From NCBI RefSeq assembly GCF_036588685.1, contig NC_086385.1:2914001-2978000 (forward strand): a stretch of 64,000 nt of DNA, read 5' to 3'. The notes under the pieces are model-generated. The model saw only the letters and a program-made list of their open reading frames with translations, was not told the DNA's origin and ran no database searches. This DNA is from Mytilus trossulus. Lineage: Eukaryota. Position numbers and translations under genes: made by a program. Below are positions 15,627 through 58,913 of the stretch, one piece after another (within the stretch, counting starts at the first letter, position 1; the number at the start of each line of letters is the position of its first letter).

Positions 15627-17273
15627 CTCTAAATATACTTCAGAAATTTACCCAAACGAACTTACTTTAACTAAATCTAACATAAACAGCAGCAGTTGTC
15701 CTTTTCTAGATTTAGACATTTCAATTTCAAACGGGAAACTTCACACTAAAATTTACGACAAAAGAGACGATTTTTCATTTCCTATTGTTAATTTTCCTTT
15801 TTTAGACGGCGATGTGCCTTTGGCTCCATCATACGGTGTTTATATATCGCAACTCGTTTGGTTTGCCCGGGTGTGTTCTGATGTCATAGATTTTAACGAA
15901 CTTAATCAATGCATCACTGGTAAATTGTTGTGTCAGGGATTTCGATACCATAAATTACTTAAAACTTTTACTAAATTCTTTCATAGATACAAAGATTTGA
16001 TTAGTAAATTTGGCTATACCTGTAGAAAGCTTATTAAAAATGGTATATCACATCCTAAATTTTATGGTAATATTGTACTTAAAGCGAGGAAATCACTATG
16101 TGATCCTTGTAAACTCATCGAACCTTTAAACAAACTTATAAGTAAGGGTTATATATCGTACCAATATTGTAATTAGATCTCTGAATATAGTTCACATTGG
16201 CACTAATATTGATTTTGTCATTAGCAAATTAAAACATAACTAAATTTCATTATCTTTTGAGGCGAGATGTATAGGGGACACAGCCACGTTAACTTTTATT
16301 TTTATAGAAGTCGCTCTTCACTATACTACTACCTGTCGATACATTTATTTTTGGCATTGCACAAGTCATGTCTTCTTTGACTATTAATGACATTAAAATA
16401 CTAAATCCCTGTGATGTGTTTTAGTCGATTTTAGTCTCTGATGCACGATTTTTTACTATTAATTGGTTTTGGCTTTTAACTAGCTGTCAGTCATTGTCAG
16501 TAACTGGGAGTACTCTCAAATCGTATTTTCTTGTTAATTCGACCTGTTGATACTGTTTATAATGCTTTTTTGTCATTTTTTATCTATATGGATCTTGTCT
16601 GTACACCAGCTTTGATTATTTGTAATATCTTCAATTTTTCACTTATTCTTACAACATTTGTATAAACTTCAAGATTATAAAAAAACGTTTTTTTTCTAAA
16701 GTGAACATTGATTGGTTAAATATTTCTCAGTGTGTTTGAATTTCTTTGTTAGCCTTTTGGTCATGAATGTTTGTCTCTAATATTTAATTAACTGTGCATT
16801 TGTATTCAGATATCGCAGATCAAATTTATTCCTTCATTGTGTAATCATACGTTTTTTGATTGAGTTATGTCTGCCAATTGATATTTTATCGTATGTTTTT
16901 CTATGTTGTGATGTTATGCTATTGTTTCAGAAAAAGGGAAAAGGTTTGGATCCATTAAAACGTTTAATCCCGCTGCAAATGTTTGCACCTGTCCTATAAA
17001 GTCAGGAATCTGATGTACAGTAGTTGTCGTTTGTTTATGTAATATATACGTGTTTCTCGTTTCTCGTTTTGTTTATATAGATTAGACCGTTGGTTTTCCC
17101 GTTTGAATGGTTTTACACTAGTAATTTTGGGGCCCTTTATAGCTTGTTGTTCGGTGTGAGCCAAGGCTCCGTGTTGAAGGCCGTACTTTAACCTATAATG
17201 GTTTAATTTTTAAATTTTTATTTGGATGGAGAGTTGTCTCTTTGGCACTCACACCACATCTTCCTATATCTAT
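15627..17273 (+). mobile_element. 5'-truncated copy of the Naiad-type Penelope-like element (RT C-terminus, 3' UTR, terminal repeat)
   Basis: Near-identical to ~52157-53786; small indels including a frameshift near 16150; same 3' end TCCTATATCTAT; no TSD. Confidence 0.95.
16364..16450 (+). promoter_or_regulatory. SECIS element, copy 2
   Basis: GACTA-TTA-ATGA-CATTAAAATAC-TAAA-TCCCTGTGAT-GTGTTTTAGTC-GA-TTT-TAGTC: helix I, UGA/GA core, 10-bp helix II, apical AAA. Confidence 0.8.
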
Positions 17274-26400: not shown

Positions 26401-28204
26401 TATTGTCTATATATTCTGTACAGTGGCGATCAGTGGCGAATCCAGAAATTTTCATTAAGACTTAGAGGGGGTCCACTGACTTCCTAAGAGGGAGCCCGAT
26501 CTAGTCATACTTTAGTGAGTCCCTAAATAATCAAACTATCAAACTATTTTTTCTCACAAAAGGGGGGGTGTTCTCCCCCTCCCCCCAAATCCGCCTCTGC
26601 CGTAGCTAGGCAAGAAATGTGATCGCACACAAGCTGTTAACTACAGGCCCGTCTCTCTTACCTCAGTATGCTGTAAAATGATGGAACATCAACCGTCATG
26701 TAATGTACCACTTGGAAAAACACTAATGGGTTGTCGGACCAATGGGCTGTCGGAATAATGGCGTGTAACCTACTCTAAACTGAAGCAACAATAAATTTAA
26801 ATGATAATTAAAAACAGAAATTTAAGGATTACTATCAATAAAGAAATTAAACGGAAGAGATGAAATATGCTTAATTATGAATCTTGAAAACAGGACAGTC
26901 CACCGGACAAATTCGATAGAAAAGTTTTTATAAAAATTTCGGACTTCTCGAAGTATTCAAATATTAACAATTATACATTACACGTAAACTGAAATAAATA
27001 AAAAGGAATTAATTGCCATATGGGTATTCCATAATCTGTTCATTGTCTACAAATATAGTCCCATCTCAAAAGTACTACATACTGTAAATGTGATCGTATC
27101 TTCCATTTTAAACAGACCAGACACAAATAAATTATTACTTTACAAATAGAAAAAAAAGTAGTAGAAATAAAACCTGGCAGTTACCTTATCAATGACCTCT
27201 CATTATTCAAAACTACGGAGACCAATCATAGTCTTAACGTTATCAGGTTATTGCCATTCAAAGGTAGGCATTGTGTTTGAAATGGCCCGTAGCACTTATG
27301 CCATAGCACTTATGTCCTAGACCCGTACGAGTTTGTCAGCAAAGGGTAAGGGCAGTACCCTGGCATATACCAAAGTCAAAATTAACTATTGCCGGCTGGC
27401 TAAACTAAGAGATTCTCCACGTGTGCCATGATGCCAGAGGTAGAGGTGGGCATTGTCAATTTGACTTTAACATGGCCCATAGAACTTAAGTCCTAGACCC
27501 GTACGTGTTAGTCAGCAAAGAGTTAAAATGGGGAGGGTGTACCCCGGTATATCACGAAGTCGAAATGAACAATTGTCGGCTGGCCAAACAAAGAGATTTT
27601 CCACGTGTGTCATTATACTTATCCGTCGTCACCTTTGAAGTAATCATTCCTTTTATAGCCAACTATACGGTTTGGGTTTTTCTCATTATTGAAGGCCGTA
27701 CGGTGGACCATGATTGATTACATCTACTTCATCTCAACTTCTGTTAATCGTTGTCTCATTGACAATCATACCTTATCTCCTTATTTCTACAAATAATAAG
27801 TAAATTTTATTTAAAGTCTGCATATATGTTAAATTAATAACTTGAGCTTAAGAAAAAAACTGTCACATGAGCACACAAATACTGATTTAAAAGAAAGCAA
27901 CGAGGTTATAGCATATATGTTTTTCTTATTAAGCAAACATTGTTAGTAAGGCCTTACTGATACATGTGATACACTTTACTGAATATAATATAGATACACG
28001 AATTATTTAATTAAGATACAAAAATATAAACTGCTCTGCTAGAATCTTAACAATCTGAGAATAATACAAAATAACCAAATCAAGCGCAATGTTAGAAAAG
28101 TACACAAGTACACAATTTATGAGCTTATAGTAATCATACATTGATGTTGTGAAATGTTAAAGTCTGGCACGTATTAGTCGCATCATTTTTGTGCTTTTTA
28201 TATT

Positions 28205-28770
28205 GAGAGTTTGAAGTTTTGGGACATATCAGTCTCATCACTAGAATTCTACGTGTAGTGAGAGTGTGAAGGTTTGGTACATATCAGTCTATCACTAGGG
28301 TTCTACGTGTAGTGAGGGTGTGAAGGTCTGGTACATATCAGTCTCATCACTAGCGTTCTACGTGTAGTGATGGTGTGAAGGATGGTACATATCAGTCTCA
28401 ATACTAGGGTTCTACGTGTAGTGAGAGTGTGAAGGTCTGGGACATATCAGTCTTATCACTAGGGTTCTACGTGTAGTGATGGCGTGAAGGTTTGGGACAT
28501 ATCAGTCTTATATCACTAGGGTTCTACGTGTAGTGAGGGTGTGAAGGTCTTGTACATATCAGTCTTTCACTAGGGTTCTACGTGTAGTGAGGGTGTGAAG
28601 GTCTGGGACATATCAGTCTTATCATTCGGATGCTTCATATAGTGAGAGTGTGAAGGACTGGGACAAATCAGTCTCACTATTTGGGCTTTTCGTGTAGCTA
28701 GAGTATGAAGGTCTGGAACATATTAGTCTAATTAGTTGGGCGCTTCGTGTAGTGACAGTGTGAAGGTCCA
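28205..28770. repeat. ~55-bp tandem repeat, about 10 units
   Basis: GTGTGAAGGTCTGGTACATATCAGTCTCATCACTAGGGTTCTACGTGTAGTGA unit. Confidence 0.92.
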
Positions 28771-31700: not shown

Positions 31701-34700
31701 CGTACACAGACTGTTGGATACATAGACTTGTAGACATTTAGACATACTGGTGGACTCGTACACAGACTGTTGGATACATAGACTGGTAGACATGTAGACA
31801 TACTGGTGATCTCGTACACAGACTGTTGGATACATAGACTTGTAGACATTTAGACATACTGGTGGACTCGTACACAGACTGTTGGATACATAGACTGGTA
31901 GACATTTAGACATACTGGTGATCTCGTACACAGACTGGTGGATATATAGACTGGTGGACATGTAGACATACTGGTGATCTCGTACACAGACTGTTGGATA
32001 CATAGACTGGTATACATTTAGACATACTGGTGATCTCGTACACAGACTGGTGGATACATAGACTGGTAGACATTTAGACATACTGGTGATCTCGTACACA
32101 GACTGTTGGATACATAGACTGGTAGACATGTAGACATACTGGTGATCTCGTACACAGACTGTTGGATACATAGACTTGTAGACATTTAGACATACTGGTG
32201 GACTCGTACACAGACTGTTGGATACATAGACTGGTAGACATTTAGACATACTGGTGATCTCGTACACAGACTGTTGGATACATAGACTGGTATACATTTA
32301 GACATACTGGTGATCTCGTACACAGACTGTTGGATACATAGACTGGTATACATTTAGACATACTGGTGATCTCGTACACAGACTGTTGGATACATAGACT
32401 GGTAGACATTTAGACATACTGGTGGACTCGTACACAGACTGTTGGATACATAGACTGGTATACATTTAGACATACTGGTGATCTCGTACACAGACTGGTG
32501 GATACATAGACTGGTAGACATGTAGACATACTGGTGATCTCGTACACAGACTGGTGGATACATAGACTGGTAGACATTTAGACATACTGGTGGACTCGTA
32601 CACAGACTGTTGGATACATAGACTGGTAGACATTTAGACATACTGGTGGACTCGTACACAGACTGTTGGATACATAGACTGGTAGACATTTAGACATACT
32701 GGTGATCTCGTACACAGACTGTTGGATACATAGACTGGTAGACATTTAGACATACTGGTGGACTCGTACACAGACTGTTGGATACATAGACTGGTAGACA
32801 TTTAGACATACTGGTGATCTCGTACACAGACTGTTGGATACATAGACTGGTAGACATTTAGACATACTGGTGATCTCGTACACATACTATTTGATATATA
32901 GACTGGTGGACATGTAGACATACTGGTGGACTCGTACACAGACTGGTGGATATATAGACTGGTAGACATGTAGACATACTGGTGATCTCGTACACAGACT
33001 GTTGGATACATAGACTGGTATACATTTAGACATACTGGTGATCTCGTACACAGACTGTTGGATACATAGACTTGTAGACATTTAGACATACTGGTGATCT
33101 CGTACACAGACTGTTGGATACATAGACTGGTAGACATTTAGACATACTGGTGATCTCGTACACAGACTGTTGGATACATAGACTGGTAGACATGTAGACA
33201 TACTGGTGATCTCGTACACAGACTGTTGGATACATAGACTGGTAGACATTTAGACATACTGGTGATCTCGTACACAGACTGTTGGATACATAGACTGGTA
33301 GACATGTAGACATACTGGTGATCTCGTACACAGACTGTTGGATACATAGACTGGTAGACATTTAGACATACTGGTGATCTCGTACACAGACTGGTGGATA
33401 CATAGACTGGTAGACATGTAGACATACTGGTGATCTCGTACACAGACTGTTGGATACATAGACTGGTAGACATGTAGACATACTGGTGGACTCGTACACA
33501 TACTATTTGATATATAGACTGGTGGACATGTAGACATACTGGTGATCTCGTACACAGACTGGTGGATACATAGACTGGAAGACATGTAGACATACTGGTG
33601 GACTCGTACACATACTATTTGATATATAGACTGGTGGACATGTAGACATACTGGTGATCTCGTACACAGACTGGTGGATACATAGACTGGAAGACATGTA
33701 GACATACTGGTGGACTCGTACACATACTGGTGGATACATAGACTGGTAGACATGTAGACATACTGGTGGACTCGTACACATACTGGTGGATACATAGACT
33801 GGTAGACATTTAGACATACTGGTGATCTCGTACACAGACTGTTGGATACATAGACTGGTAGACATTTAGACATACTGGTGATCTCGTACACAGACTGTTG
33901 GATACATAGACTGGTAGACATTTAGACATACTGGTGATCTCGTACACAGACTGTTGGATACATAGACTGGTAGACATTTAGACATACTGGTGGACTCGTA
34001 CACAGACTGTTGGATACATAGACTGGTAGACATTTAGACATACTGGTGGACTCGTACACAGACTGTTGGATACATAGACTGGTAGACATGTAGACATACT
34101 GGTGATCTCGTACACAGACTGGTGGATACATAGACTGGTAGACATTTAGACATACTGGTGGACTCGTACACAGACTGTTGGATACATAGACTGGTAGACA
34201 TGTAGACATACTGGTGGACTCGTACACATACTGGTGGATACATAGACTGGTAGACATTTAGACATACTGGTGGACTCGTACACAGACTGTTGGATACATA
34301 GACTGGTAGACATTTAGACATACTGGTGATCTCGTACACAGACTGTTGGATATATAGACTGGTGGACATGTAGACATACTGGTGATCTCGTACACATACT
34401 GTTGGATACATAGACTGGTAGACATTTAGACATACTGGTGGACTCGTACACAGACTGTTGGATACATAGACTGGTAGACATTTAGACATACTGGTGATCT
34501 CGTACACAGACTGTTGGATACATAGACTGGTAGACATTTAGACATACTGGTGATCTCGTACACAGACTGGTGGATACATAGACTGGTAGACATTTAGACA
34601 TACTGGTGATCTCGTACACAGACTGTTGGATACATAGACTGGTAGACATTTAGACATACTGGTGATCTCGTACACAGACTGTTGGATACATAGACTGGTA

Positions 34701-37700
34701 GACATTTAGACATACTGGTGATCTCGTACACAGACTGTTGGATACATAGACTGGTAGACATTTAGACATACTGGTGATCTCGTACACAGACTGTTGGATA
34801 CATAGACTGGTAGACATTTAGACATACTGGTGATCTCGTACACAGACTGTTGGATACATAGACTGGTAGACATTTAGACATACTGGTGGACTCGTACACA
34901 GACTGTTGGATACATAGACTGGTAGACATTTAGACATACTGGTGATCTCGTACACAGACTGTTGGATACATAGACTGGTATACATTTAGACATACTGGTG
35001 ATCTCGTACACAGACTGTTGGATATATAGACTGGTGGACATGTAGACATACTGGTGATCTCGTACACAGACTGTTGGATATATAGACTGGTGGACATGTA
35101 GACATACTGGTGATCTCGTACACAGACTGGTGGATACATAGACTGGTAGACATGTAGACATACTGGTGGACTCGTACACAGACTGTTGGATACATAGACT
35201 GGTAGACATGTAGACAGACTGGTGGACTCGTACACAGACTGTTGGATACATAGACTGGTAGACATTTAGACATACTGGTGATCTCGTACACAGACTGTTG
35301 GATACATAGACTGGTAGACATTTAGACATACTGGTGATCTCGTACACAGACTGTTGGATACATAGACTGGTAGACATTTAGACATACTGGTGGACTCGTA
35401 CACAGACTGTTGGATACATAGACTGGTAGACATTTAGACATACTGGTGGACTCGTACACAGACTGTTGGATACATAGACTGGTAGACATTTAGACATACT
35501 GGTGATCTCGTACACAGACTGTTGGATACATAGACTGGTAGACATTTAGACATACTGGTGATCTCGTACACAGACTGTTGGATACATAGACTGGTAGACA
35601 TTTAGACATACTGGTGATCTCGTACACATACTATTTGATATATAGACTGGTGGACATGTAGACATACTGGTGGACTCGTACACAGACTGTTGGATACATA
35701 GACTGGTAGACATTTAGACATACTGGTGATCTCGTACACAGACTGTTGGATACATAGACTGGTAGACATTTAGACATACTGGTGGACTCGTACACAGACT
35801 GGTGGATATATAGACTGGTAGACATGTAGACATACTGGTGATCTCGTACACAGACTGTTGGATACATAGACTGGTATACATTTAGACATACTGGTGATCT
35901 CGTACACAGACTGTTGGATACATAGACTTGTAGACATTTAGACATACTGGTGATCTCGTACACAGACTGTTGGATACATAGACTGGTAGACATTTAGACA
36001 TACTGGTGATCTCGTACACAGACTGTTGGATACATAGACTGGTAGACATGTAGACATACTGGTGATCTCGTACACAGACTGTTGGATACATAGACTGGTA
36101 GACATTTAGACATACTGGTGATCTCGTACACAGACTGTTGGATACATAGACTGGTAGACATGTAGACATACTGGTGATCTCGTACACAGACTGTTGGATA
36201 CATAGACTGGTAGACATTTAGACATACTGGTGATCTCGTACACAGACTGGTGGATACATAGACTGGTAGACATGTAGACATACTGGTGATCTCGTACACA
36301 GACTGTTGGATACATAGACTGGTAGACATGTAGACATACTGGTGATCTCGTACACAGACTGGTGGATACATAGACTGGTAGACATGTAGACATACTGGTG
36401 GACTCGTACACATACTATTTGATATATAGACTGGTGGACATGTAGACATACTGGTGATCTCGTACACAGACTGGTGGATACATAGACTGGAAGACATGTA
36501 GACATACTGGTGGACTCGTACACATACTATTTGATATATAGACTGGTGGACATGTAGACATACTGGTGATCTCGTACACAGACTGGTGGATACATAGACT
36601 GGAAGACATGTAGACAGACTGGTGGACTCGTACACAGACTGTTGGATACATAGACTGGTAGACATTTAGACATACTGGTGGACTCGTACACATACTGGTG
36701 GATACATAGACTGGTAGACATGTAGACATACTGGTGGACTCGTACACATACTGGTGGATACATAGACTGGTAGACATGTAGACATACTGGTGGACTCGTA
36801 CACAGACTGTTGGATACATAGACTGGTAGACATTTAGACATACTGGTGGACTCGTACACATACTGGTGGATACATAGACTGGTAGACATGTAGACATACT
36901 GGTGGACTCGTACACATACTGGTGGATACATAGACTGGTAGACATGTAGACATACTGGTGATCTCGTACACAGACTGTTGGATACATAGACTGGTAGACA
37001 TGTAGACATACTGGTGGACTCGTACACATACTGGTGGATACATAGACTGGTAGACATGTAGACATACTGGTGGACTCGTACACATACTGGTGGATACATA
37101 GACTGGTAGACATTTAGACATACTGGTGGACTCGTACACAGACTGTTGGATACATAGACTGGTAGACATTTAGACATACTGGTGATCTCGTACACAGACT
37201 GTTGGATACATAGACTGGTAGACATTTAGACATACTGGTGGACTCGTACACAGACTGTTGGATACATAGACTGGTAGACATTTAGACATACTGGTGATCT
37301 CGTACACAGACTGTTGGATACATAGACTGGTAGACATGTAGACATACTGGTGATCTCGTACACATACTGGTGGATACATAGACTTGTAGACATTTAGACA
37401 TACTGGTGATCTCGTACACAGACTGTTGGATACATAGACTGGTAGACATTTAGACATACTGGTGATCTCGTACACAGACTGTTGGATACATAGACTGGTA
37501 GACATTTAGACATACTGGTGGACTCGTACACAGACTGGTGGATACATAGACTGGTGGACATGTAGACATACTGGTGGACTCGTACACAGACTGTTGGATA
37601 CATAGACTGGTAGACATTTAGACATACTGGTGGACTCGTACACAGACTGTTGGATACATAGACTGGTAGACATTTAGACATACTGGTGGACTCGTACACA

Positions 37701-38540
37701 GACTGTTGGATACATAGACTGGTAGACATGTAGACATACTGGTGATCTCGTACACAGACTGTTGGATACATAGACTGGTAGACATTTAGACATACTGGTG
37801 ATCTCGTACACAGACTGTTGGATACATAGACTGGTAGACATTTAGACATACTGGTGATCTCGTACACAGACTGTTGGATACATAGACTGGTAGACATTTA
37901 GACAGACTGGTGGACTCGTACACAGACTGTTGGATACATAGACTGGTATACATTTAGACAGACTGGTGGACTCGTACACAGACTGTTGGATACATAGACT
38001 GGTAGACATTTAGACAGACTGGTGGACTCGTACACAGACTGTTGGATACATAGACTGGTAGACATGTAGACATACTGGTGGACTCGTACACAGACTGTTG
38101 GATACATAGACTGGTAGACATTTAGACATACTGGTGATCTCGTACACAGACTGTTGGATACATAGACTGGTATACATTTAGACATACTGGTGGACTCGTA
38201 CACAGACTGTTGGATACATAGACTGGTGGACATGTAGACATACTGGTGGACTCGTACACATACTGGTGGATACATAGACTGGTAGACATTTAGACATACT
38301 TGTGGACTCGTACACAGACTGGTGGATATATAGACTGGTGGACATGTAGACATACTGGTGATCTCGTACACAGACTGTTTGATACATAGACTGGTAGACA
38401 TGTAGACGGACTAGTGGACTCGTACACATACTGGTGGATACACAGACTGGCGGATACGTACACAGAATAGTGGATATATAGACTGGTGGACATGTAGACA
38501 GACTGGTGGACACGTACACAGACTGGTGGACATGTAGAGA
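28770..38540. repeat. 56-bp satellite array (~9.8 kb, ~174 units)
   Basis: Unit CTGGTGATCTCGTACACAGA-CTGTTGGATACATAGA-CTGGTAGACATTTAGACATA (20+16+20). Confidence 0.98.
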
Positions 38541-40499: not shown

Positions 40500-41460
40500 T
40501 GCATACAAAATCGACTTTTGTTACACAAAATTGACTTTTGTTACACAAAAATTACTTTTGTTACACAAAAATTACTTTTGTTACACAAAATTGACTTTTG
40601 TTACACAAAATTGACTTTTGTTACACAAAATTGACAAAATTGACTTTTGTCTCAACAAAATTGACAAAATTGAATTTTGTCTCAACAAAATTGACAAAAT
40701 TGAATTTTGTCTCAACAAAATTAACAAAATTGAATTTTGTCTCAACAAAATTAACAAAATTGAATTTTGTCTCAACAAAATTGATTTTTGTCTCACGAAA
40801 GTCAATTTTGTCTCACGAAAGTCAATTTTGTCTCATAAAAGTCAATTTTGTTGTTACAAAATTCATCACAAAAATGAATTTTGTCTCAACAAAATTGACA
40901 AAATTGACTTTTGTCTCAACAAAATTAACAAAATTTACTTTTGTCTCAACAAAATTTACAAAATTGACTTTTGTCTCAACAAAATTAACAAAATTGACTT
41001 TTGTCTCAACAAAAATTACAAAATTGAATTTTGTCTCACAAAAGTCAATTTTGTCTCACAAAAGTCAATTTTGTCTCACAAAAGTCAATTTTGTCTCACA
41101 AAAGTCAATTTTGTCTCACAAAAGTCAATTTTGTCTCACAAAAGTTAATTTTGTTTCACAAAATTGAATCTTACCGTACACAATTGACTTTTGTGATTTA
41201 ATTTCCATATCAGGTAACAAAAGTCAATTTTGTATGCAAATATGTTTATATTTGCATACCTTTAAGACAAAATTGACTTTTGTCATGACAAGTATGAATT
41301 TTGTCTACAAAAATGAATTTTGTCATGACAAAAATGAATTTTGTCTACACAAATGAATTTTGTCATCACAAAATTGAAGTTCTCACAAAACAAGTCTGTA
41401 GCACATAGTTTTGTAAGACAAAAATGATTTTGTTATGACAGAATTGAATTTTGTACAAAA
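40500..41460. repeat. 20/30-bp quasi-palindromic tandem repeats
   Basis: ACAAAATTGACTTTTGT and its inverse ACAAAAGTCAATTTTGT, in blocks. Confidence 0.92.
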
Positions 41461-41756: not shown

Positions 41757-44700
41757 CTACCTCAATAAATTCGATCGCACCTGATGTAACTTAAAACATA
41801 GTCCTCTAGTAATACATTCCACTTTAAAAACATCGCCTCTGGACAGAAAATGAAATACACTGCAGTCGATAATTAACTGTAAAGTGTTGATTTCGGAACT
41901 AAATAGTTCATCATAAAGTTTAGTAGTTACAACATCTTTAATAAAAGTTTTTAGACTCTGTATAAAACTGTTTCTCACATTATCTAAACTACTGCATCTC
42001 AAGATAAAATGTAACCGATTCTCATCCTCAGTTCCACATAGCGGACAGATTGCACTAATTTGTCGTTTACTAAATTTAGACTTATCACATTGTAGAGTAT
42101 AAGTGTTACATGCTAACTTAGATTTGATACAGGCACGTAAGGTAGAGTAAGGTTCAGATCCACAAGTATTCCAAATAGAATGAATGCTTCCAAATTCAGC
42201 ATCAGTATAGTTTAAAAGGTTTAAAGATGATTTTTCTGACGCTTCAGATTTTAGTTTAGTTATCCAGTAGTAGTTTACTAAAGAGTTAACCAGTTTTTTC
42301 CATTTTGACTTTGAAGGAGGGTTGACAAGTAGATCATGAGGTGACGGCAGATCATATAATTCTGTAATTGTAACTACTTTACGAAACCAGCTGTTTGATG
42401 ACTCGGTTTTCATTGCAAGTTGACGGAATGCTAAGTCACGTTCGACAGAGTTATCATTATCAATAATGTTTCTAAAAATACCAAGGATTCTTTTATGGAT
42501 TTCTGCTTCAATAGGAATTTGTCCAATTAATAGTAGAACAGCAGCATTTGCTGTACGATCCGGTAAATGTTGAATACGTTTTAAAAGTTTCACAAAATAT
42601 ATTGAAATATTACTAATGTCTGTTTTTGAAAGCAGTATGACCTCAAGTCCATATAAAAGCCTAGGAATCACGTAGCAGCGGATAAGATGAAGTGAAACCT
42701 TAGGGTTGACTCCATTTAGTCCATAAAGTCCAGCACCCATCAGTGAGTAGACAGTCTGTCTGGCTAGTTGAATGCGACCAGGGACAACTTCTTTAGTGCC
42801 TAAACGGGAAAGTTTATCACGTTTAATACCGAGATGAACTGCGTTTTCCGGAGTATCCAAAATTTCACCGTTAATAGACCAGTCGAAAGAGTCAGCACAT
42901 CTATAGTTTAATACACATGATTTTTGACTACTAATAAGATAACGAAATTTATTAGCATGAAAAGTTTGTAAATCTAACATAGACTGTATTTCGTATGGAC
43001 AGTTTGAAACTAAGGTGACATCATCTGCGACTGTCGGAACTCCTACGTAGATTGAGCCAATATGAGAACCTAAACGATAGGTTTCGAGTGTAGTGAGAAG
43101 AGAGTTTATGAAAATCTTATAAGCGGTTGGGGACCAGACACCACCCTGTCGGACACCTTGAGATTCCAGGAATGTTCTTGACGTTTGTCCTTGCCATTTA
43201 ATATTAGAGTTCAGCCCATTATACCAGTCCTTAAAGAGAAGCCAATTGTCACCACAAAGTCCAGCTTTATTCATTTCACGAAGAAGACCATCATGCCAAA
43301 CTACATCAAAAGCACTTTTAGCATCAGTGAGTGCAATAATTAGTGGATTCCCATTCTCTTTAGCCTCAGTATGTAATTCAGTAAGAATAAGCGCAGCAAC
43401 AAGCGGTATTTCACCTTGAGTAAAGCCTTTCTGTAACGGACTTTGTATATTGGAAATATTGTCCTTATTCCTGACAAGATGTAATTTTTCTGTTAATTTC
43501 CCAACAGGATTAGTAATAGTAATTTTCCTGTAGGAACCAGGATCCTCTTTCGGTTTCCCCTTTTTCTTGAAAACAGGACAAGCAAGTCCATTTTTAAATA
43601 CAGTTGGAATAATGTGATTTGAAAATGAGAATGTTATAATAGATGTTAAAACATAAGAGAGAGTTTTTCCACCAAATTTTAAATGTTCACAGGTTACTCT
43701 AGAGGCATCAGGTGCCTTTCCATTCTTAAGTGAATTAATAATTTGTACCACCTCCTTTTCTGAGACTGGGGCCAGAGTATCTCTATTATTAGTATAAGTA
43801 TCGGTCAAGGCTGATATGTCCTGTTCCACAATAAGTTTATATGTATCATCAAAGTCAGGGTTATCGACCGGGGTAGCTAGCTTTTCGTAATATGAAGCCC
43901 AGGTATCTAAAATTTCCTCCCTCAGTATTTATTATTTTATTGTCATATTTTAAAATAGATGTCACAGAAGAGCGCAAGTTACGCTGGTTGTTAATTAAAG
44001 TATAGAAATTTTTATCATTTCTGTCAGATAGCGACATAATATCAGTAAATTTAGACTGTCTCTTAGCAGATTCTATTTTCCTTTGTTCTGATCTAAGTTT
44101 CTTTTTAAGTATTCTCATTTGTTGATAATGAATGCTTAGTTTATCTGATGTTCCCTCTTGTCTCCACATCCAATAATGATATTTACTACGGTTTAAAATT
44201 TCAGTCATATTCGGAGTCCAGCATCTATTATTTTTCCCACGTTTTCTACTTTTAGGAGGTTGAAGCGAATCAGCAGTTTGAGTAATTATCTCACAAGCAG
44301 AGAACACAAATTCATCAAAGTTTTCAATTGATAGATTATCTATTTCAGTTACTTTTGACTGTAAGTTTAATTCCAATAATCGCTGATATTCACATTTATC
44401 AATCTTATTCCAATTAATACGCTGCAAATGATTGTTTTTTGGAATAGCATTTGGTCTATCTGACGTTTTTGTTATAACTGATACCATTATCGGATCATGA
44501 GTAGAGGTGTTAGCTGATTCACGGCTATACGTACAGTATGTATTAATAATATCAAAATTCTGAATAAAATAGTCAATTTGTGACTCATCACGATTGTTAA
44601 AATGATAAAATGTACTACACTCAACACAGTTGTCAGGAATACTTAGATTATTATTACGTAGAAAGATTTTAAAATCATTATCTCTAGGATGATTCCTGAA

Positions 44701-45174
44701 AATTGAGGCATTCATATCACCACCAATTAAAATATTAGCAGAGTCTCTATATTTTGTGACAATTTCGATAAGTTCGTCTAATACAGAAAGATAGTCATCA
44801 CGACTATAATTAATACTACGAGAAGGTAAATATACAGAAATAATCACCAGAGGTACTTCAAAGTTCAAACGTATTGCGGCAATTCTATTACTTCCATCAG
44901 GTAGTTTCTCCAAATATGGACTATATTTATTGTTTACGCAAATTGCGACCCCAGCATGTGCACGTTTTCTATCAACTACATCATCAATAATTCCATCGTC
45001 AAAACACTTAATATGACAGTTAAAATCTATAAAATTAGAATACAAATTATCCTTCTCATGACTATAGAGCCAGTGCTCTTGAAGTAAGATGATATCTGAT
45101 CTTTTAATAAGTTTATAAAGATACACTAAATTAGAGGTCAGACCTTCAATGTTAAAAGATAAAATATTTAACAT
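41757..45174 (-). CDS. LINE ORF2p (APE + RT + C-terminal Cys/His knuckle) with one frameshift at ~43920
   Basis: APE motifs SFNIEG, LQEHW, GGDMN, SQIDY, STHDP; RT motifs YRKITI, QKGF, DAKSAFD, GVRQGG, VADD, HLGI; C-terminal CPLC...E...HF..RC. Confidence 0.92.
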
Positions 45175-45182
45175 ATGTGTAG

Positions 45183-47057
45183 TTAAATTCTTGGCTGATT
45201 CGATAGGTGAGATTGTTGACTCTGATTCTGAAATCTCGGGATCACTTGGTATTGTCGAAGGACATTTGATTGACGAACATGATTCTGATTTCTCTGTCTT
45301 GTCGGAGGAGGGTGGTACATTGGTTTCTTTGGTGGAGAGTAGTTCATATGTGGCAGGTGTCTTTTCGGCGCACGAGTATGGCCTAAAAAAGGCGACTGTT
45401 CATTATATGATATACTATGACTGGGCGATTGTTCATCTCCTGCCTCGTCATCGCGCATTTCAAGTTCAGAGTCAAATAAAATATTTGTACAAGAGTCATT
45501 TGAAGGATTCTCATACTTAAACTGGTCAGCAGTTTGATTGTTAAACACTTTTTGTTTCTTTTTTCTTATTCTTGGTTGTTTACGTCCATTATCTATTTTA
45601 AAGTCAATGAATTTATCAGCTAAATTTGAAATTTTATTATCTTGTTTAAGTAGTTCGAATTCTAATGAACGTACACGTTGTTCCATGGCATATGATCTAG
45701 CATTATCTTCTCGATTAGATGCAGATGGTTCATGTACCGTATTGTTGGGTTTTTGTTGTTGAATCAATAATGAATGTTCAAGATCCTTTTTATCTTGCTC
45801 TAATTTAATAGTGAGGGCTCTGTTAGTAGCCAATTCCTTTTTCATTAGTTTTATTTCAGAATCTTGTTTACAAATGAGTGATTCTTTGGTTTTCAGTTGC
45901 TTATCTTTTAGTCCAAGTTGAGATTTTAAATGTTTTATTTCCTCTTCTAAAATGTTAGTGTTATTACACGTTGTTGTTGGAGTGGCACTGATGGACACAG
46001 GAATAGGATATGAGTTACAGTTATTTAAACGTGGCGGAGTGGAGCCCATAGCAGTGGGATGACTCAAGTTTGTAGAAATATCATTACTTTCTAAACGTGA
46101 CCGAATACTTGTGGTTGGTCGGATACCAATGTTTTCCGGTGCATGTTTTAGTTGAGGAGCAAGTAGATCTAATTGCAATGTTTTTAAAGTTTTGCAGCTG
46201 TTACAATTGTATTGAAGAGTTAAATCGTTTTCTATCTCGTCAACCTCCTTATCGGTTAGATTTTCACATTTATAATGTAGCCATTTATTGCAGATCTCAC
46301 ATTCAACTGCCTTATCGTCAGAACTACAAAGATTTTCACATGTAGGACAGTAGTCATTTAGTTGATCAGAAGTATTTATTATTGACTTTAAAGATGCAGA
46401 AGCACTATTTTGATTAGAATGTTGACACTGATCTTGTTGAGTACTAGTATTAATGTCTGTAGTTTGCATACAACTGGCCTGATTTGAATTCAAATATGCT
46501 GTGCAACAATGTCTGATTTTACTGTTAATTGCTATGAAATCCTTATTGTGGTCTAATACATTCAAGATATCAGGTAGGGTTGACGAAATAAAAACTGACA
46601 TATGTAGCTGATTACCATTCAAAACTACTTTTGACGAGGTATTGTAAAAGTTTAATACGTAAAGTTTGTTCTGTGCATCATTGACAACGACAGATTCAGA
46701 GACTACTGCTTTATTTATGTCAGTGGTATTAGTCCTTCTTATTGAGAGACCCTGACCTTGAAGCACACTCAGGGACACGATTTTGAATTCCTCATAAGCA
46801 CCGGCAGTGAATGTAAGCACCAAGTTACCAGGACTAAATTCAGGTACTACTGAGAATGTTCGATTTGAGGCATCAAGTTTTTGACGAATTGCTTTGTTTT
46901 TATTTAGAGCATATTCAGCTGAGTGATCAGAAGTATCGACGATAGATGACTTGTCACTAGTTGAGGTAACAGTTACAGCTTTACGTGCTGTCTTTGCAGG
47001 GGTATAGGCTGAGCGTTTTGTTTTGACTCGGTCACTCCTTCTTCTTGCTATCTCCAT
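45183..47057 (-). CDS. LINE ORF1p with PHD finger and coiled coil (624 aa)
   Basis: CPTC..C......ECEICNKWLHYKC....YNCNSC PHD motif; heptad-rich region LEEEIKHLKSQL...; uninterrupted frame. Confidence 0.9.
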   Translation of the reverse strand: MEIARRRSDRVKTKRSAYTPAKTARKAVTVTSTSDKSSIVDTSDHSAEYALNKNKAIRQKLDASNRTFSVVPEFSPGNLVLTFTAGAYEEFKIVSLSVLQGQGLSIRRTNTTDINKAVVSESVVVNDAQNKLYVLNFYNTSSKVVLNGNQLHMSVFISSTLPDILNVLDHNKDFIAINSKIRHCCTAYLNSNQASCMQTTDINTSTQQDQCQHSNQNSASASLKSIINTSDQLNDYCPTCENLCSSDDKAVECEICNKWLHYKCENLTDKEVDEIENDLTLQYNCNSCKTLKTLQLDLLAPQLKHAPENIGIRPTTSIRSRLESNDISTNLSHPTAMGSTPPRLNNCNSYPIPVSISATPTTTCNNTNILEEEIKHLKSQLGLKDKQLKTKESLICKQDSEIKLMKKELATNRALTIKLEQDKKDLEHSLLIQQQKPNNTVHEPSASNREDNARSYAMEQRVRSLEFELLKQDNKISNLADKFIDFKIDNGRKQPRIRKKKQKVFNNQTADQFKYENPSNDSCTNILFDSELEMRDDEAGDEQSPSHSISYNEQSPFLGHTRAPKRHLPHMNYSPPKKPMYHPPPTRQRNQNHVRQSNVLRQYQVIPRFQNQSQQSHLSNQPRI

Positions 47058-48799
47058 TATTGTTTATTTACTTATCGATGGAGATGAGTGATATATATCG
47101 AGAGGTAGTACTATGGATATCGATGATAGGTAATTTACTACACACGGTTAAACCAGTAAAAATTATGAGCAGTAAAACGAAACTTTAAAAAAGTTAAAAA
47201 ATGTCCGAGACTAAAAGAACAGATTCATTTAAAAATGTTATAAAATCTGTTAAAAGGTAAAAATAGTTCTATGGAAGTGTTGCTTATAAAGTCCGGTAAG
47301 ACAAAGACACAATAAATGTGGAGTATATATGCGTAAATATCAATTTACCAAAAAACTCAAGATGGCGTCGTCAGCAGATGCCAGTTTAACACACGATTCG
47401 TAGCTTTCCAGGTGAAATATAAAAGTTTTAATGTTCAGGTAACATGAACGATTGTTTTGGAGTAGAGGTGGTGTTAATAAAACAATGTGTATATAAAATG
47501 GTATGACTAAAACAGTAAAATAACACAGTTTTCCTCTGCAGCTAGAAAAGTGGGTCCGCCATGTTCGTCATCCGGGCAACACTCCCAAACCACAAGAGTC
47601 CCATTCGGCGCCCCGTAGTCGTAACTGGCTGCATCCAATCAAAAATCGTCTTTAACATGATCACGTGAAAATGTAAAAATGTAGGTAAACGATTACCACG
47701 TGATGAATGTGCAACAAGTCTTTTCACCTAAAAACATACGACGATATTTAGTGACAATTTAAAAATGTGTTTAATCAACTAATAGAAGTTTTCTGGGTAT
47801 TTTTCTTGCACAAATGTTTGAACGTCAAACGTCAACCCATATTTTCGTTTCCTACTGCACCAAGTTTGTAGACTCTAAATGCTATCGTGTTTTCACCTCC
47901 ACACTGAGGAGACTTCAAGTGCTCCCAATAGTCAAGAATAATGTATTTGGAATGAGCGTGTCATTAATCAAAAGATAGCAACTATAGGCTTAATATACCA
48001 AAAGTGGAGAGGAGGATAGTTGGTCGCAACCCTTGGCTAGCGAAGATACAATCCTCATGTGCCCGCCTGAAACAATATGAGTTGCTTTACCAACACTGTT
48101 TCGGTTAAGAAGGGGGTTTATCGCAAGCAAACATGTTTAATTTCGCCACATTTTCTATAGCCATTGGTCCATATGGGCGTAAAGTGCTTTTCAAATAAAA
48201 TTATAAAATTATGTACTTGTCCCAAATTAGGAGCATACAATTCAGTGTAACGTTTGTTGTTGAGTATCAAACTGTTTTCATTGGTTTTTTTTGTACTAAT
48301 CATACCGTTAGATTTCTCGTTTGAATTGTTTTACGTTTGTCCTGTTGGGGCCTTTTGCATCTGACTATGCGGTCTGGGATTTTGCTTACTTTAAATGCCG
48401 TACAGTGACCGTTTGTTTATGTCTATGTCATTTGGTCTTTGGTTGAAATTTGTCTCATTGGCATTTATACGACATCTTTGTATTTCAATATTGTGGTTTA
48501 GGACTGATTTATTAATAGGGCAACGATTTATCTTAGTCGGACTATTGGGAAACCGAACGAATTTACTCATGCGACAATGATTTATCTTAGTCGTACTATT
48601 GTTGGTGTTGAACTATATAAGGTTGTCAGACAAATTTACTATTAATGGCAGTGATAAAAATTCGTCGGCCTATAAGAATTTCAGACTAGTGTACTATGCA
48701 CTGTGTTGGAATCGATAAAACTTACAAGAATCATGTACCTCTGCTATCGCCTTTTTTAGTCCTGTGTGTGGGGGGATTCTATTTTGATTCATTTGTATG

Positions 48800-49377
48800 T
48801 TTCTAAAGTGAACATTGATTGGTTAAATATTTCTCAGCGTGTTTGAATTTGTTGATAGCCTTTTGGTCATGACTGTTTGTCTCTAATATTTAATTAACTG
48901 TGCATTTGTATTCAGATATCGCAGATCAAATTTATTCGTTCTTTGTGTAATCATACGTTTTTTGATTGAGTTAAGTCTGCTAATTGATATTTTATCGTAT
49001 GTTTTTACATGTTGTGATGTTATGCTATTGTTTCAGAAAAAGGGAGAAGGTTTGGGCCCATTAAAACGTTTAATCCCGCTGCAAATGTTTGCACCTGTCC
49101 TAAGTCAGGAATCTGATGTACAGTAGTTGTCGTTTGTTTATGTAATATATACGTGTTTCTCGTTTCTCGTTTTGTTTATATAGATTAGACCGTTGGTTTT
49201 CCCGTTTGAATGGTTTTACACTAGTAATTTTGGGGCCCTTTATAGCTTGTTGTTCGGTGTGAGCCAAGGCTCCGTGTTGAAGGCCTTACTTTAACCTATA
49301 ATGGTTTAATTTTTAAATTGTTATTTGGATGGAGAGTTGTCTCATTGGCACTCACACCACATCTTCCTATATCTATT
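48800..49377 (+). repeat. 5' pseudo-LTR
   Basis: Direct repeat of 53210-53787; I see only about two substitutions. Confidence 0.95.
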
Positions 49378-49795
49378 TACTGCAGGGTTTGTTACTCGTG
49401 CTGTGTGGATGCAGTAGAATGTGTCCCCGTGCTTGTAGTGTATGCCCTTATATATTTCAGTTATTGGTTGTTTGCCTGTGAGAGAGCTTTCACATGTTTA
49501 TATCTTTATTGTTTACGATGTTGGGATGTATTGATACTCATCCACGCCTGCTATTTTTTTTATTATTGCCCCCTGCTATGGTTTTTATTAGATTTCTTAC
49601 AACCACTGTTTTTGCCCTGTGTTTGTTACACATGTCAGTTTTGTTATATTAGTCCATACGTCGGGCCTTTTATTACAGTTTTTGTAAGAGTTCTTTACTG
49701 CACTCCTTATTATTCCTTATTCTGTAACTGTGATCCTCATTCAATGTTACAACCTCCGGTCTTTTGTATTGATCCTATACCCCTATTACATTATC

Positions 49796-52770
49796 ATGAT
49801 TTTACGGAATGGAAAAAATATTATCAACAACACAACTTCTAGGTTATCTACGTGCATAAATAAACGTATTGGTAATGCCACTACAGCCAGATTATTTAAC
49901 AAAAATGCACGTGGATATCCACAAATTTTCCCGTGCAATGCCAAAAAATGACTAACTTGTTTTAGATTAACTTCTCAAAATACTATAAGGTCAACAGTGA
50001 ACGGGAGAACCTTTTCGCTCTCCTTTTCCTGTGATATTACCTGAAAAACTCAAAACCTAATATATGTGGTAACTTGAACCCAACCTAAGTGTGGTATTCA
50101 ATATGTGGGACAGACGGGACGAGAGTATTTCAGAAGAAATCAAGAACATCTGTACCGCTTTCGTAGACCCAAAAAATTCAAAAGTTTAGTATATCAGCAT
50201 TTAGATAAGCATAATCATAATCTGAAATATATAAAATTCCAACCGCTCGAAACCGTTCAAAAACAACCAGGAGAATCACACAAGCAATTTGAAAAATCAC
50301 GCGAAGTTCGCGAATTGTTTTGGATAAAAAGACTTCAAACAGCTTATCCTCTCGGTCTAAATGATAAAATATTAGGGCAGGGGAACATATCTAAAACTCA
50401 TATCGATGTCATTAATATTGTTGATAAACGACTTAGAAATAATAGGTCTCATGGTAAACGCAAGAACCGCAATCAACGTATTAAACATCGTATAAATTAT
50501 ACACTTGCTGATCTGTTATCTATAATAAAGAATAATGGCAGACATCAAGTATTATGCAAACTGGGTCAGATACCTATAAGTGAATTATATGCTATTTTTC
50601 TTGAGTGTAATAAAATTTCTTTTTTTAGCCCATTTTATGAATACACCCGTATTATTACAGCCTTTTGTCATCACAGGCTTTTTCCTATTATTGATAAACC
50701 TGAAAATCGTAAACGACATTTTCTCAAATTAAAATATATAAATAGAGGTATTGATTTTATTAATTTGTCTAGCATATTCAATGACTCTTCTGTCTATAGC
50801 TTAATACCTCCATATTTTGATAATATAGAACAACCCATTATTTCGTATTCTTATAAAAAACCGAGCAGAAATTTGATTTTCAATTATACGTCAATTACAA
50901 CAGACGTCAATATAGAAAATAATGTTCCTTCCACTTGAGATTGCGAAACATCTAGTTTTAAATATGTTCCCTATGGTCATGTTATCACAGGAGACCTCAA
51001 CATAGTCGATGACCGTGAAGTCATAACTTTTCTAAAGAAAGGACCGAAATACCGTCCTCCTTCTACAATAGATTGGAAACAGTGTCGTCAGGTCATTAAA
51101 GACGCTCCGTCTGCCTATTGTAAAAATTGGTGCAAACGTGAAAAATCCGATAAAAAATCTTTAGACAGTTATTTGAATAAAATTATGAATACTGTTGATA
51201 TTCGAATATCTCATTTAGAAAACAATTCTGAAATTAATAATAGGAACCATGATATACCCATTTCTAGAATAAAAAACAAACTCAAGGTACTCGCAGAGCG
51301 GTTTGTGTTCGTACCGGCAGACAAGGCAGCAAATAATGTAGTGGTGGTGTGACGCATATACTACACGAAAGTTCTTCAAAACGAAATAATAAATTCCTCT
51401 ACATTCAGGTCAGTGCGCACCACAGAGAGTCAAATCGTTAACAAGCATACCACTGCCACTGCCCAGCTTAAAGCATCTTCCGAACATTTGAAAGTCCCTA
51501 CCATGTACTGGTTACCGAAATTACACAAAAAACCATTTAAATTCCGTTTCATCTCCGCTTCGAGTAAGTGTTCTACTACTAATCTATCAGTGCTTCTAAC
51601 CACCTCCCTAACTACTATCAAAGAACTGGTTATTAACTTTTGTAATAAAGCTTATGAAAATAATGGTATTAATTATTTTTGGAGTGTTAAAAATTCTTTA
51701 GAGGTTTTAGATAAAATACATGCTTTCAATGGTCCTTACAACTCTGTTGACAGTTATGATTTTTCTACTCTGTACACTACACTTCCACACAATCTTATAA
51801 AGAAAAAATTTTTTTATTTGATAAAATGGTCTTTCGAAAAATCTCATTGTAATTTTATTTGCTGTAACTCGTTTAAGGCCTTTTTATGTAACGAAAAAGG
51901 AAAGTATGCTAGATACACTTACTGGAAATGTGAGGATATGATTGAAGCTTTAAACTTTCTGCTTGATAACATTTATGTACGTTTCGGCGATAAAGTGTAT
52001 CGTCAGGTAGTAGGTATTCCTATGGGCACCAATATTGCTATGAATCTCAGTTTATGACCAAACTCAGTAAAGACCCATCATTGTTACATTTGGTTGATAC
52101 ATTCAAAAATACCTACCGTTATCTGGATGATATTTTTTCGTTGAATAATCCAGAGTTCTCTAAATATACTTCAGAAATTTACCCAAACGAACTTACTTTA
52201 ACTAAATCTAACATAAACAGCAGCAGTTGTCCTTTTCTAGATTTAGACATTTCAATTTCAAACGGGAAACTTCACACTAAAATTTACGACAAAAGAGACG
52301 ATTTTTCATTTCCTATTGTTAATTTTCCTTTTTTAGACGGCGATGTGCCTTTGGCTCCATCATACGGTGTTTATATATCGCAACTCGTTCGGTTTGCCCG
52401 TGTGTGTTCTGATGTCATAGATTTTAACGAACGTAATCAATGCATCACTGGTAAATTGTTGTGTCAGGGATTTCGATACCATAAATTACTTAAAACTTTT
52501 ACTAAATTCTTTCATAGATACAAAGATTTGATTAGTAAATTTGGCTATACCTGTAGAAAGCTTATTAAAAATGGTATTTCTCATCCTAAATTTTATGGTA
52601 ATATTGTACTTAAAGCGAGGAAATCACTATGTGATCCTTGTAAACTCATCGAACCTTTAAACAAACTTATAAGTAAGGGTTATCGTACCAATATTGTAAT
52701 TAGATCTCTGAATATAGTTCACATTGGCACTAATATTGATTTTGTCATTAGCAAATTAAAACATAACTAA
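49796..52770 (+). CDS. Putative selenocysteine-containing GIY-YIG/RT polyprotein (~1000 aa; 5 in-frame UGA; one frameshifting deletion at ~52040)
   Basis: One frame from ATG 49796 (MILRNGK) to GIPMGTN (~52041). Its only stops are TGA at 49949, 50042, 50075, 50936 and 51350, each in a Cys-type context. The frame resumes YCYESQFMTKL and ends at TAA 52768-52770. Confidence 0.85.
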
Positions 52771-52890
52771 ATTTCATTATCTTTTGAGGCGAGATGTATA
52801 GGGGACACAGCCACGTTAACTTTTATTTCTATAGAAGTCGCTCTTCACTATACTACTACCTGTCGATACATTTATTTTTGGCATTGCACA

Positions 52891-52977
52891 AGTCATGTCT
52901 TCTTTGAATATTAATGACGTTAAAATACTAAATCCCTGTGATGTGTTTTAGTCGATTTTAGTCTCTGATGCATGATT
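52891..52977 (+). promoter_or_regulatory. SECIS element in the 3' UTR
   Basis: ATGA at 52914-52917; helix II GTTAAAATAC/GTGTTTTAGT; apical AAA with mini-stem; GA at 52954-52955; outer pairing AGTCATG/CATGATT. Confidence 0.82.
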
Positions 52978-53209
52978 TTTTACTATTAATTGGTTTTGGC
53001 TTTAAACTAGCTGTCAGTAACTGCGAGTACTCTCAAATCGTATTTTCTTGTTAATTCGACCTGTTGATACTGTTTATAATGCTTTTTTGTCATTTTTTAT
53101 TTATATGGATCTTGGCTGTATACCAGCTTTGATTATTTGTAATATCTTCAATTTTTCACTTATTCTTACAACATTTGAATAAACTTCAAGATTATAAAAA
53201 AACGGTTTT

Positions 53210-53787
53210 TTTCTAAAGTGAACATTGCTTGGTTAAATATTTCTCAGCGTGTTTGAATTTGTTGATAGCCTTTTGGTCATGACTGTTTGTCTCTAATATT
53301 TAATTAACTGTGCATTTGTATTCAGATATCGCAGATCAAATTTATTCGTTCTTTGTGTAATCATACGTTTTTTGATTGAGTTAAGTCTGCTAATTGATAT
53401 TTTATCGTATGTTTTTACATGTTGTGATGTTATGCTATTGTTTCAGAAAAAGGGAGAAGGTTTGGGCCCATTAAAACGTTTAATCCCGCTGCAAATGTTT
53501 GCACCTGTCCTAAGTCAGGAATCTGATGTACAGTAGTTGTCGTTTGTTTATGTAATATATACGTGTTTCTCGTTTCTCGTTTTGTTTATATAGATTAGAC
53601 CGTTGGTTTTCCCGTTTGAATGGTTTTACACTAGTAATTTTGGGGCCCTTTATAGCTTGTTGTTCGGTGTGAGCCAAGGCTCCGTGTTGAAGGCCGTACT
53701 TTAACCTATAATGGTTTAATTTTTAAATTGTTATTTGGATGGAGAGTTGTCTCATTGGCACTCACACCACATCTTCCTATATCTATT
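53210..53787 (+). repeat. 3' pseudo-LTR
   Basis: Direct repeat of 48800-49377. Confidence 0.95.
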
Positions 53788-57930: not shown

Positions 57931-58913
57931 ACCGCGCTGAAGTACGTCCATTATTTATTTTCCATTATTCAAAATTAAATAATGAATAATGAAATAGTTC
58001 ACTATTCACTATTCAATGTTAAGTGATGAATAATGAATAATGAAATAGTTTATGTTTCATTATTCAAGTTGAAGCGGTGAATAGTGAATTTTTTTTTTTT
58101 AATTGACTGTGACACAACACTATAGCTATGTCTCGTTTTTCTAAATTCTTCTTTTTTTGTGTTATCTTACAAATATTCAAATTAATATCAGAAAAAATAA
58201 ATAAAAACCATCTTTCAATTTTAATTTGATTTATCTATCTAGTTCCTAGTTTTGGAGGATAAACTAGTTGGTTTGTCACTATTTTTAACAGAAATTCCTT
58301 GGTACAATGTATGGACGACCTGAATACCAAAACATTAACCGGTATATCAAAATTGAAATACTCTACGTGGTCTTTTTGTTTTATTTTCACTGGACATTTG
58401 CTATTCTTCGAACACCTCTAATGGTAATTGTTGCATAATTGACTTGATATATCTATAATCATAGGATGAAGAATAGTTAATGTACAGTGAGACAACTTAG
58501 TGTATTTTAATTTTTATATGTATGTTTTGGTACTCAGGTCGTCCATACATTGAACCAAGGAATTTCTGTTTAAAATAGTTAGGAGAACCCACTAGTTTAT
58601 CCTCCGAAAGTAAATGAATAAATAAAATAAAAAAATTAAAGAGTGTTTTTTTTTCTGATATAAAATTTGAATATTTGTTTGTCAAAGATAACACCAAAAT
58701 GACGAATCTAGAAATACGGGATACAGCTATAGGGTCACATTTTTTATTTTTTTATTTCACTATTCACTGCTTCAACTTGAATAGTGAAACATAAACTATT
58801 TCAGTATTCATTATTTATCACTTAACATTGAATAAAGAATGGTGAACTATTTCATTATTCAATATTGAATTTTGAATAATGAAAAATGAATAATGGAAGT
58901 ACTTCAGCGCGGT
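57931..58913. mobile_element. Foldback element with ~400-bp inverted arms
   Basis: ACCGCGCTGAAGTAC... / ...GTACTTCAGCGCGGT; arm homology runs inward to CAATGTATGGACGACCTGA / TCAGGTCGTCCATACATTG. Confidence 0.85.

Follow-up and report, generated by a model that had tools for sequence, protein, structure and literature searches.

A Naiad element with five in-frame TGA codons

The window, by which we mean the whole 64,000-nucleotide stretch of Mytilus trossulus DNA analysed, carries a copy of a Naiad Penelope-like retrotransposon at 48800-53787; the element and all of its features given below lie on the plus strand. It is 5 kb long and has two 578-nt pseudo-LTRs (pLTRs), at the 5′ end (48800..49377) and the 3′ end (53210..53787), which are 99.65% identical. 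The ORF (49796..52770) contains a Zn-finger-like motif, a GIY-YIG-like endonuclease, a KR block, CxC and DKA motifs and a reverse transcriptase (RT). Compared with 35 of the other copies of the family, 31 nt are missing from the RT at 52032..52033, which shifts the frame, and the window copy is unable to make a full RT owing to this deletion and frameshift. A hairpin is present in the 3′ UTR at 52906..52963, 136-193 nt past the TAA stop codon (52768..52770).

The ORF contains five in-frame TGA codons, at positions where homologues carry Cys. To see these in the family, 39 copies were fetched of the best 40 matches to the 5′ end, the fortieth being the window copy itself. The first TGA (49949..49951) takes the place of the second Cys of the CX2-5CxxC motif and is TGA in 35 of 39 copies and TTA in the other four. 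The second (50042..50044, a Cys site before GIY-YIG) and the third (50075..50077, the first Cys of CCHH) are TGA in 39/39 copies, and the fourth (50936..50938, the first Cys of CxC) and the fifth (51350..51352, eight residues past DKA, hereafter DKA+8) in 37/37 copies covering the site. In the window copy they lie 1564-2965 nt upstream of the hairpin, in agreement with the 1.5-3 kb of a preliminary description made from the sequence alone. In 9 of the 39 fetched copies the ORF runs uninterrupted for about 1000 aa, and the number of its TGA codons is exactly five; the product of one such ORF, that of L034, is 1001 aa long.

The features found comprise CX2-5CxxC, a GIY-YIG-like domain, CCHH, the KR block, CxC, DKA and a C-terminal RT, together with pLTRs, partial tandems, 5′ truncation and a body of 3.4-4.4 kb. 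By the diagnostic features set out in the text of PMC8557442, and from a comparison by eye with the published consensi, the element is classed as a Naiad. The domain assignment of the ORF rests on motifs and on homologues carrying PF01541 and PF00078; Pfam detected neither GIY-YIG nor RVT_1 in the ORF protein itself, and full-protein Pfam and PDB sequence searches returned nothing useful.

In one raw mRNA run coverage of the ORF was near zero (0-4x); contigs from RNA-labelled runs, which are unable to show transcription, cover it. Sequencing depth is far higher at the 3′ end: in the final 300 nt (53494-53787) contig depth rises to ~100,000, compared with 17 for the ORF. A short derivative of very high abundance, or a 3′ end common to other elements, would account for this.

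Anatomy of the 3′ UTR hairpin

The hairpin has the parts of a eukaryotic SECIS. Helix I pairs GAAUA (52906-10) with UAGUC (52959-63); A52908 stands opposite G, so that 4 of 5 bp form. The core AUGAC (52914-18, with AUGA at 52914-17) faces CGAU (52953-56, with GA at 52954-55). Helix II (52919-28/52943-52) has 10 pairs, three of them G-U and one G-C. An apical AAA (52930-32) lies 12 nt after AUGA and is followed by a weak mini-stem AUC/GAU (52932-34/52940-42), in which the third A of AAA is used. An extended basal stem, GUCAUGU..GCAUGAU, surrounds the whole (52892..52976); a stem at the same place in a sister family (family B, see below) has another sequence and still pairs. Every letter of the core, the 10-bp helix II and the apex given in the preliminary description is thus present. 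The letters of the AUC/GAU mini-stem are there too, but it borrows the third A of AAA and makes up ~28% of the ensemble of the isolated family hairpin (52906-52963). The minimum-energy fold of the window hairpin has an open 14-nt apical loop.

Rfam SECIS_1 was the top match by E-value in the 1.1-kb regions around this hairpin and around a second copy near 16 kb in the window, yet the scores were 22.1 bits (E 0.19) and 29.3 bits (E 0.002), both below the gathering score of 35; the covariance-model check proposed earlier thus puts SECIS_1 first, at sub-threshold strength. The family copy L034 scored 28.4 bits against the same cut-off, and a scan of the whole window with Rfam at gathering thresholds gave no match. 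Compared with form 2 of RF00031 (SECIS_1), the hairpin shares the AUGA...GA quartet, the 10-bp helix II, AA 12 nt after AUGA, helix I and the position in the 3′ UTR, and it differs in an AU/GU-rich helix II, a C.C fourth quartet pair, a mini-stem of 2-3 bp and the score (22-29 bits). The fold z-score of the hairpin at 52906-52963 was -1.9 (-16.0 kcal/mol). The 16-kb copy reached -2.5, and a copy typical of the family -4.2 (-22.2 kcal/mol).

A second SECIS was sought with a custom covariance model built from 27 SECIS of relatives (see below) and run with filters off; none was detected in the element or in the rest of the window. Only the two known hairpins were matched, at 57.3 and 52.5 bits with a training set that included L034, near-identical to the window SECIS; the next best score in the window was 17.2 bits, and the further best matches inside the element scored 11.0 (minus strand) and 10.5 bits. 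The search for another SECIS in the 3′ UTR suggested earlier thus leaves a single one per element.

Taking these data with the comparison among families below, we consider that the hairpin is a real eukaryotic SECIS, leaning to type II, of a Sec-encoding Naiad family and located in a dead copy (probability about 0.9).

In a small-RNA run, molecules of ~30 nt (piRNA size) start and end within the SECIS (52915-52944 and 52948-52977, first mate on the plus strand). Others of ~30 nt in the same run lie in the pLTR (53310-53339, first mate on the minus strand).

The second window copy and the young family

A 5′-truncated copy at 15627..17273 (+), 97-98% identical, retains the RT end, the 3′ UTR and the pLTR, with the SECIS at 16379..16436 (+), and has no UGA codons. 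As described previously, in its 16364-16450 segment A replaces G at the first helix II pair, giving A-U for G-U, and the helix I strand is GACUA, pairing perfectly with UAGUC, against GAAUA in the window copy at 48800-53787. Between the two copies there are 3 differences in the 87 SECIS positions and 32 in 1629 positions overall. GAAUA was found in none of the 40 other aligned family copies and occurs 5 times genome-wide; all 5 bp of helix I are present in 37 of these 40. Both SECIS variants are rare mutations, and the hairpin at 52906-52963 has begun to decay. It is true that the structure holds in both copies, as had been stressed, but this lends the hairpin no support: the comparison of two copies that are 98% identical, that differ by rare mutations, and of which one is frameshifted and the other lacks UGA codons, is uninformative as covariation evidence and reflects decay after insertion, not selection.

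The same applies to the family as a whole. The fetched copies are 94-99% identical (97-99% for most full-length ones), and the 55 nt starting at 52909 have 445 exact occurrences in the genome. Variation was 1.16% in SECIS columns against 0.86-1.23% in the flanks, so that within the family the motifs are no better conserved than the surrounding UTR, and 7 of 10 variant SECIS pairs were broken, so that covariation across family copies, also proposed as a check, gave no support. Comparison of the two window copies or of 40 family copies was rejected as a conservation test because the copies are young, neutrally decaying insertions.

Selenocysteine sites and SECIS elements in related families

Informative comparisons came from more distant relatives. 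A sister family, B (L070-L089), is present in this genome and is often arranged in 4.0-kb tandems. It has 66% nucleotide identity, retains four of the five TGA codons, with Cys at CxC, and has its own SECIS. This SECIS scores 32.8 bits with SECIS_1; its sequence is different, with changes that are compensatory, and its CCC/GGG mini-stem is clear. In a third Sec-Naiad group of this genome (L120-L123) TGA occupies CxC and DKA+8. The DKA...TGA codon pattern matched 978 places. A metagenome scan gave 246 relatives, and the best 80 of these were kept.

At the nine Cys sites, 410 codons from 83 loci comprised 289 TGY, 114 TGA, no TAA or TAG and 7 others. Among 59,215 codons aligned elsewhere there were 10 TGA, 7 TAG and 7 TAA. 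TGA codons are common to families sharing merely 45-65% protein identity, and relatives covering all nine sites have from 1 to 5 Sec sites.

Rfam SECIS_1 was run on 40 hand-picked loci of the 80 kept. Of 20 Sec-clade loci, 11 had a sense-strand match at the end of the ORF; of 20 loci outside the clade, none did. One of the 11 was above the cut-off (38.8 bits) and 10 were under 35. From 33 candidates a script scoring motif and pairing kept 27 SECIS, leaving out L143, L149, L150, L170, L171 and L203. In a structure-blind MAFFT alignment of the 27, helix II was 90% paired, a figure inflated by this selection, with double changes at 10/10 pairs. Slid controls on the same alignment were 38-52% paired. 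The covariation score of helix II was 0.67 versus 0.28, and none of 500 shuffles reached 0.67. The apical mini-stem was 87.5% paired with few double changes, and RNAalifold recovered it unaided together with helix II. Helix I was 62% paired and covaried poorly, its register differing among families. Mean column identity was 50%, and the invariant columns were U-G-A, one apical A and a 3′ A. UGA was present in 27/27 and the 3′ GA in 26-27 of 27, the motif being also a selection criterion; AA lay 11-13 nt past AUGA in 27/27.

The custom model made from these 27 SECIS was run on loci for which 200 nt or more of 3′ sequence was available. Among metagenome loci bearing TGA it matched 30 of 32, most of the 30 being training sequences or near-copies and four being true hold-outs (E 0.001-0.014). 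These four are weak matches among the six dropped candidates, of which L143 and L171 were missed. Outside the clade, none of the 18 Cys loci with 3′ sequence of this length was matched.

In a quick tree of the 81 of 83 rows with enough residues, all 42 TGA-bearing rows and every SECIS match fell into one clade of 48 rows, with a support of 98 by SH-aLRT, the single measure used. The 'Cys' label cannot be relied on for L192, nor for L144, L145, L174 and L176, where 1-3 of the nine sites are covered and which lie inside the Sec clade with a SECIS present. Those four, as well as L149 and L152, have Cys at DKA+8 inside the Sec clade and are apparent Sec-to-Cys reversions; L145 has TGA at another position, where the reference has Cys. 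The tree and the distribution of SECIS would fit a single gain followed by site-by-site exchange of Cys and Sec.

The host has two tRNA-Sec genes (79.6 and 77 bits). Tandem arrays with a period of 891-900 bp at G000:C10:63.84-64.49 Mb consist of a tRNA-like sequence whose score with the tRNA-Sec model, 45.9 bits, falls slightly short of the cut-off; they are probably another type of tRNA.

Sixteen of 25 fetched database homologues (P0003, P0014, P0016, P0017, P0020-22, P0027, P0028, P0030, P0035, P0036, P0042, P0044, P0046 and P0048) are pieces of 411-426 aa ending exactly before the DKA+8 site. This suggests that many Sec-Naiads are unrecognised, their ORFs being cut at UGA by gene callers.

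Comparison with published Sec-Naiads and selenoprotein P

The Mytilus trossulus family is a new family of Sec-Naiads, which as such were published in 2021 (PMC8557442). A literature search that left subscription journals, repeat databases and bioRxiv supplements outside its range found this paper as the only one on the subject. Its text describes four Sec-Naiads, two of them from clams and two from spiders; they have 3-4 UGAs and, 1-21 nt past the stop, a grade A type I SECIS. The clam elements Naiad_Mmer and Naiad_Scon, as presented there, have in common with ours the N-terminal GIY-YIG, the KR block, CxC, DKA, RT, pLTRs, a length of 4.4 kb and a 3′ UTR SECIS. Three TGA sites are common to them and our family: the Cys preceding GIY-YIG, the first Cys of CCHH, and DKA+8. 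The 3′ end of Naiad_Mmer, compared by eye, nearly equals that of L162, a locus of our Sec clade.

The Mytilus trossulus family differs in having five UGAs. Sec at the second Zn-finger Cys is shared with one published element only, the spider Naiad_Sdum, and Sec at CxC with none of the four, as they are given in PMC8557442. The SECIS is farther from the stop, at 136 nt instead of 1-21 nt. Type I is the class assigned to the published SECIS, whereas in our alignment of 27 the mini-stem is 87.5% paired; an apical mini-stem is also visible by eye in the consensi of Naiad_Mmer, where it has 4 bp, and Naiad_Scon (PMC8557442). Four mussel Naiads in the same source have Cys at the N-terminal sites and bear no UGA or SECIS annotation in the part describing them.

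The preliminary description regarded one SECIS serving several UGAs as unusual. Among Naiads it is not: all four published Sec-Naiads combine 3-4 UGAs with a SECIS (PMC8557442, as described in its text), and the relative L161 has five TGA codons and one model match. That one SECIS serves five UGAs is accurate for intact copies but not for those in the window, of which one is frameshifted and the other is devoid of UGA codons. Selenoprotein P, according to the text of PMC5133445, also has several UGAs served from a distant 3′ UTR; in mammals it has two SECIS and its Sec residues cluster in a transport tail, while the Naiad family has a single SECIS, and its Sec positions are structural Cys sites within an enzyme.

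Decoding of the five UGAs and alternative explanations

The 3′ UTR hairpin very probably directs Sec insertion at the five in-frame UGAs in intact copies, which would yield a 1001-aa endonuclease-RT. In eukaryotes SBP2 binds the kink-turn of the SECIS, and a UGA far from the hairpin is decoded by eEFSec together with Sec-tRNA. By analogy with this established biology, SBP2 would bind the AUGA/GA kink-turn of the Naiad RNA and eEFSec would bring Sec-tRNA to each distant UGA, so that a full-length protein would require five recoding events. Because all five UGAs are upstream of the RT core, the RT could be made only where Sec is decoded, and its synthesis would thus require selenium. As a matter of arithmetic only, five independent recodings at 30% each would give a yield of ~0.2%; processive decoding would raise it greatly. 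The recent spread of the family, which numbers hundreds of copies, shows that the output suffices, and only that.

It could be that the arrangement is itself of regulatory benefit, five UGAs on one weak SECIS throttling the RT and tying transposition to selenium, along the lines of the strong limit on RT output raised in the preliminary description. This is compatible with Sec insertion and does not exclude it. The single SECIS, the position of every UGA before the RT and the variable number of Sec sites among relatives (1 to 5 of 9) speak for such a throttle, as does the low efficiency of UGA recoding reported for most selenoprotein mRNAs in the text of PMC8310308. Against it, SECIS 1 of mouse selenoprotein P 'can suffice' and decoding can be processive, as stated in the text of PMC5133445. 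The family is moreover abundant and young, with 445 exact SECIS copies and most full-length copies 97-99% identical, and the UGAs are at conserved Cys sites and not at random ones. On balance we regard a throttle as conceivable, with the odds somewhat against it.

Kink-turns bind other proteins too, and the 3′ UTRs of retroelements often contain structures recognized by the RT. The hairpin might accordingly be a conserved kink-turn with another task, such as binding of an L7Ae-family protein or template recognition by the RT, the UGAs being read as Cys or leakily. Here, however, Cys-only Naiads with the same RT lack the hairpin (0/18 outside the clade, counting those with 200 nt or more of 3′ sequence), all 27 SECIS retain the SECIS-specific AA at 11-13 nt from AUGA, and leaky readthrough of five codons in succession would leave almost no protein, which makes this explanation highly improbable. 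Sec insertion is favoured still more strongly over the proposal that the TGAs are inactivating nonsense mutations in a non-autonomous family and the hairpin a chance look-alike, which draws on the broken window copy, the sub-threshold Rfam score and a within-family conservation not exceeding that of the flanks, and which is largely refuted and barely credible in view of TGA being confined to Cys columns where TAA and TAG never occur, its sharing by families 45-65% identical in protein, an ORF open over ~1000 codons, and a hairpin that covaries and tracks the TGA clade.

A twister-like motif in the pLTRs

The 3′ pLTR contains a motif resembling the Twister-P5 ribozyme at 53452..53519 (+), with two 8-nt palindromes in the P1 region, and a second one is present in the 5′ pLTR (49042..49109, +); in the truncated copy at 15627..17273 the motif is mutated. 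The predicted cut is at 53481/53482, a site that we assume from twister biochemistry. Rfam Twister-P5 (RF02684) gave 21.8 bits for the 3′ pLTR motif (E 0.009 on 161 nt), below the cut-off of 37.6, and two distant Cys Naiads scored 36.3 and 35.3 bits. Further loci with the motif are L073, L122, L145, L152, L173, L205 and L211. In all of nine sequences P2, GAxxG, UAA, P4 with an 8-nt loop and both pseudoknots are as in type-P5 twisters. P2, P4 and the pseudoknots T1 and T2 pair in all 111 cells of these nine, and six pairs are doubly changed. A relaxed pattern matched 10 of 72 metagenome 3′ tails, which are often short for so strict a pattern, none on the reverse strand and none of 360 shuffles.

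The motif departs from type P5 in that canonical P1 is absent and two palindromes stand in its place. Palindromes or near-palindromes of 8-10 nt, differing in sequence, replace P1 in 8/8 cases examined, each being found in 3-9% of shuffles, and similar ones can be seen by eye in the consensi of Naiad_Scon and Naiad_Mmer as published. As a monomer the linker of the P1 region does not fold (0 to -1.6 kcal/mol). These sequence features suggest that the palindromes may serve dimer formation. Hammerheads associated with Penelope elements reportedly form dimers, to judge from the title of a paper. Naiads are described as being without canonical hammerheads in the text of PMC8557442, and the word 'twister' does not occur in the main texts of PMC8557442 and 10.64898/2026.07.22.740005. 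No paper on a twister in Naiads was found in a search outside which lay subscription journals, repeat databases and bioRxiv supplements. If active, the motif would explain RNA processing in hammerhead-less Naiads, and a dimeric pLTR twister, if true, would stand in for the hammerhead that is 'missing' from Naiads.

Implications

The published oddity of transposons encoding selenoproteins is extended here to Mytilus trossulus as a host and to a family with five Sec residues. Covariation and presence/absence evidence for the SECIS of Sec-Naiads, which was not met in the text of PMC8557442, is now supplied. Tentatively, and as a joint proposal that we judge rather less probable than its opposite, Sec-Naiads may form one large, old clade of marine invertebrates with a single inherited type II SECIS and with flips between Cys and Sec at up to five sites, CxC included, their RNA being cut from a tandem pLTR transcript by a dimeric twister that uses palindromes for P1. 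If this were true, Sec recoding at multiple UGAs would take place on a ribozyme-cut RNA having neither cap nor poly(A).

No fewer than 445 copies of the SECIS of this one family lie ready-made across the genome. Such copies make testable a proposed route to new host selenoproteins, the delivery of SECIS by truncated insertions.

Other features of the window

A separate and nearly intact LINE-type element, with a PHD-finger ORF, an endonuclease and RVT_1, occupies 41757-47063 on the minus strand. Satellite DNA is found at 28204-38450 and 40505-41196: a 56-bp satellite in ~158 copies, 55/56-bp arrays adjoining it, and 20-bp minisatellite arrays in inverted orientation. At 57931-58913 there are nested inverted repeats, with 158-nt arms that are 92% complementary and inner arms of 58 nt, resembling a small DNA transposon.
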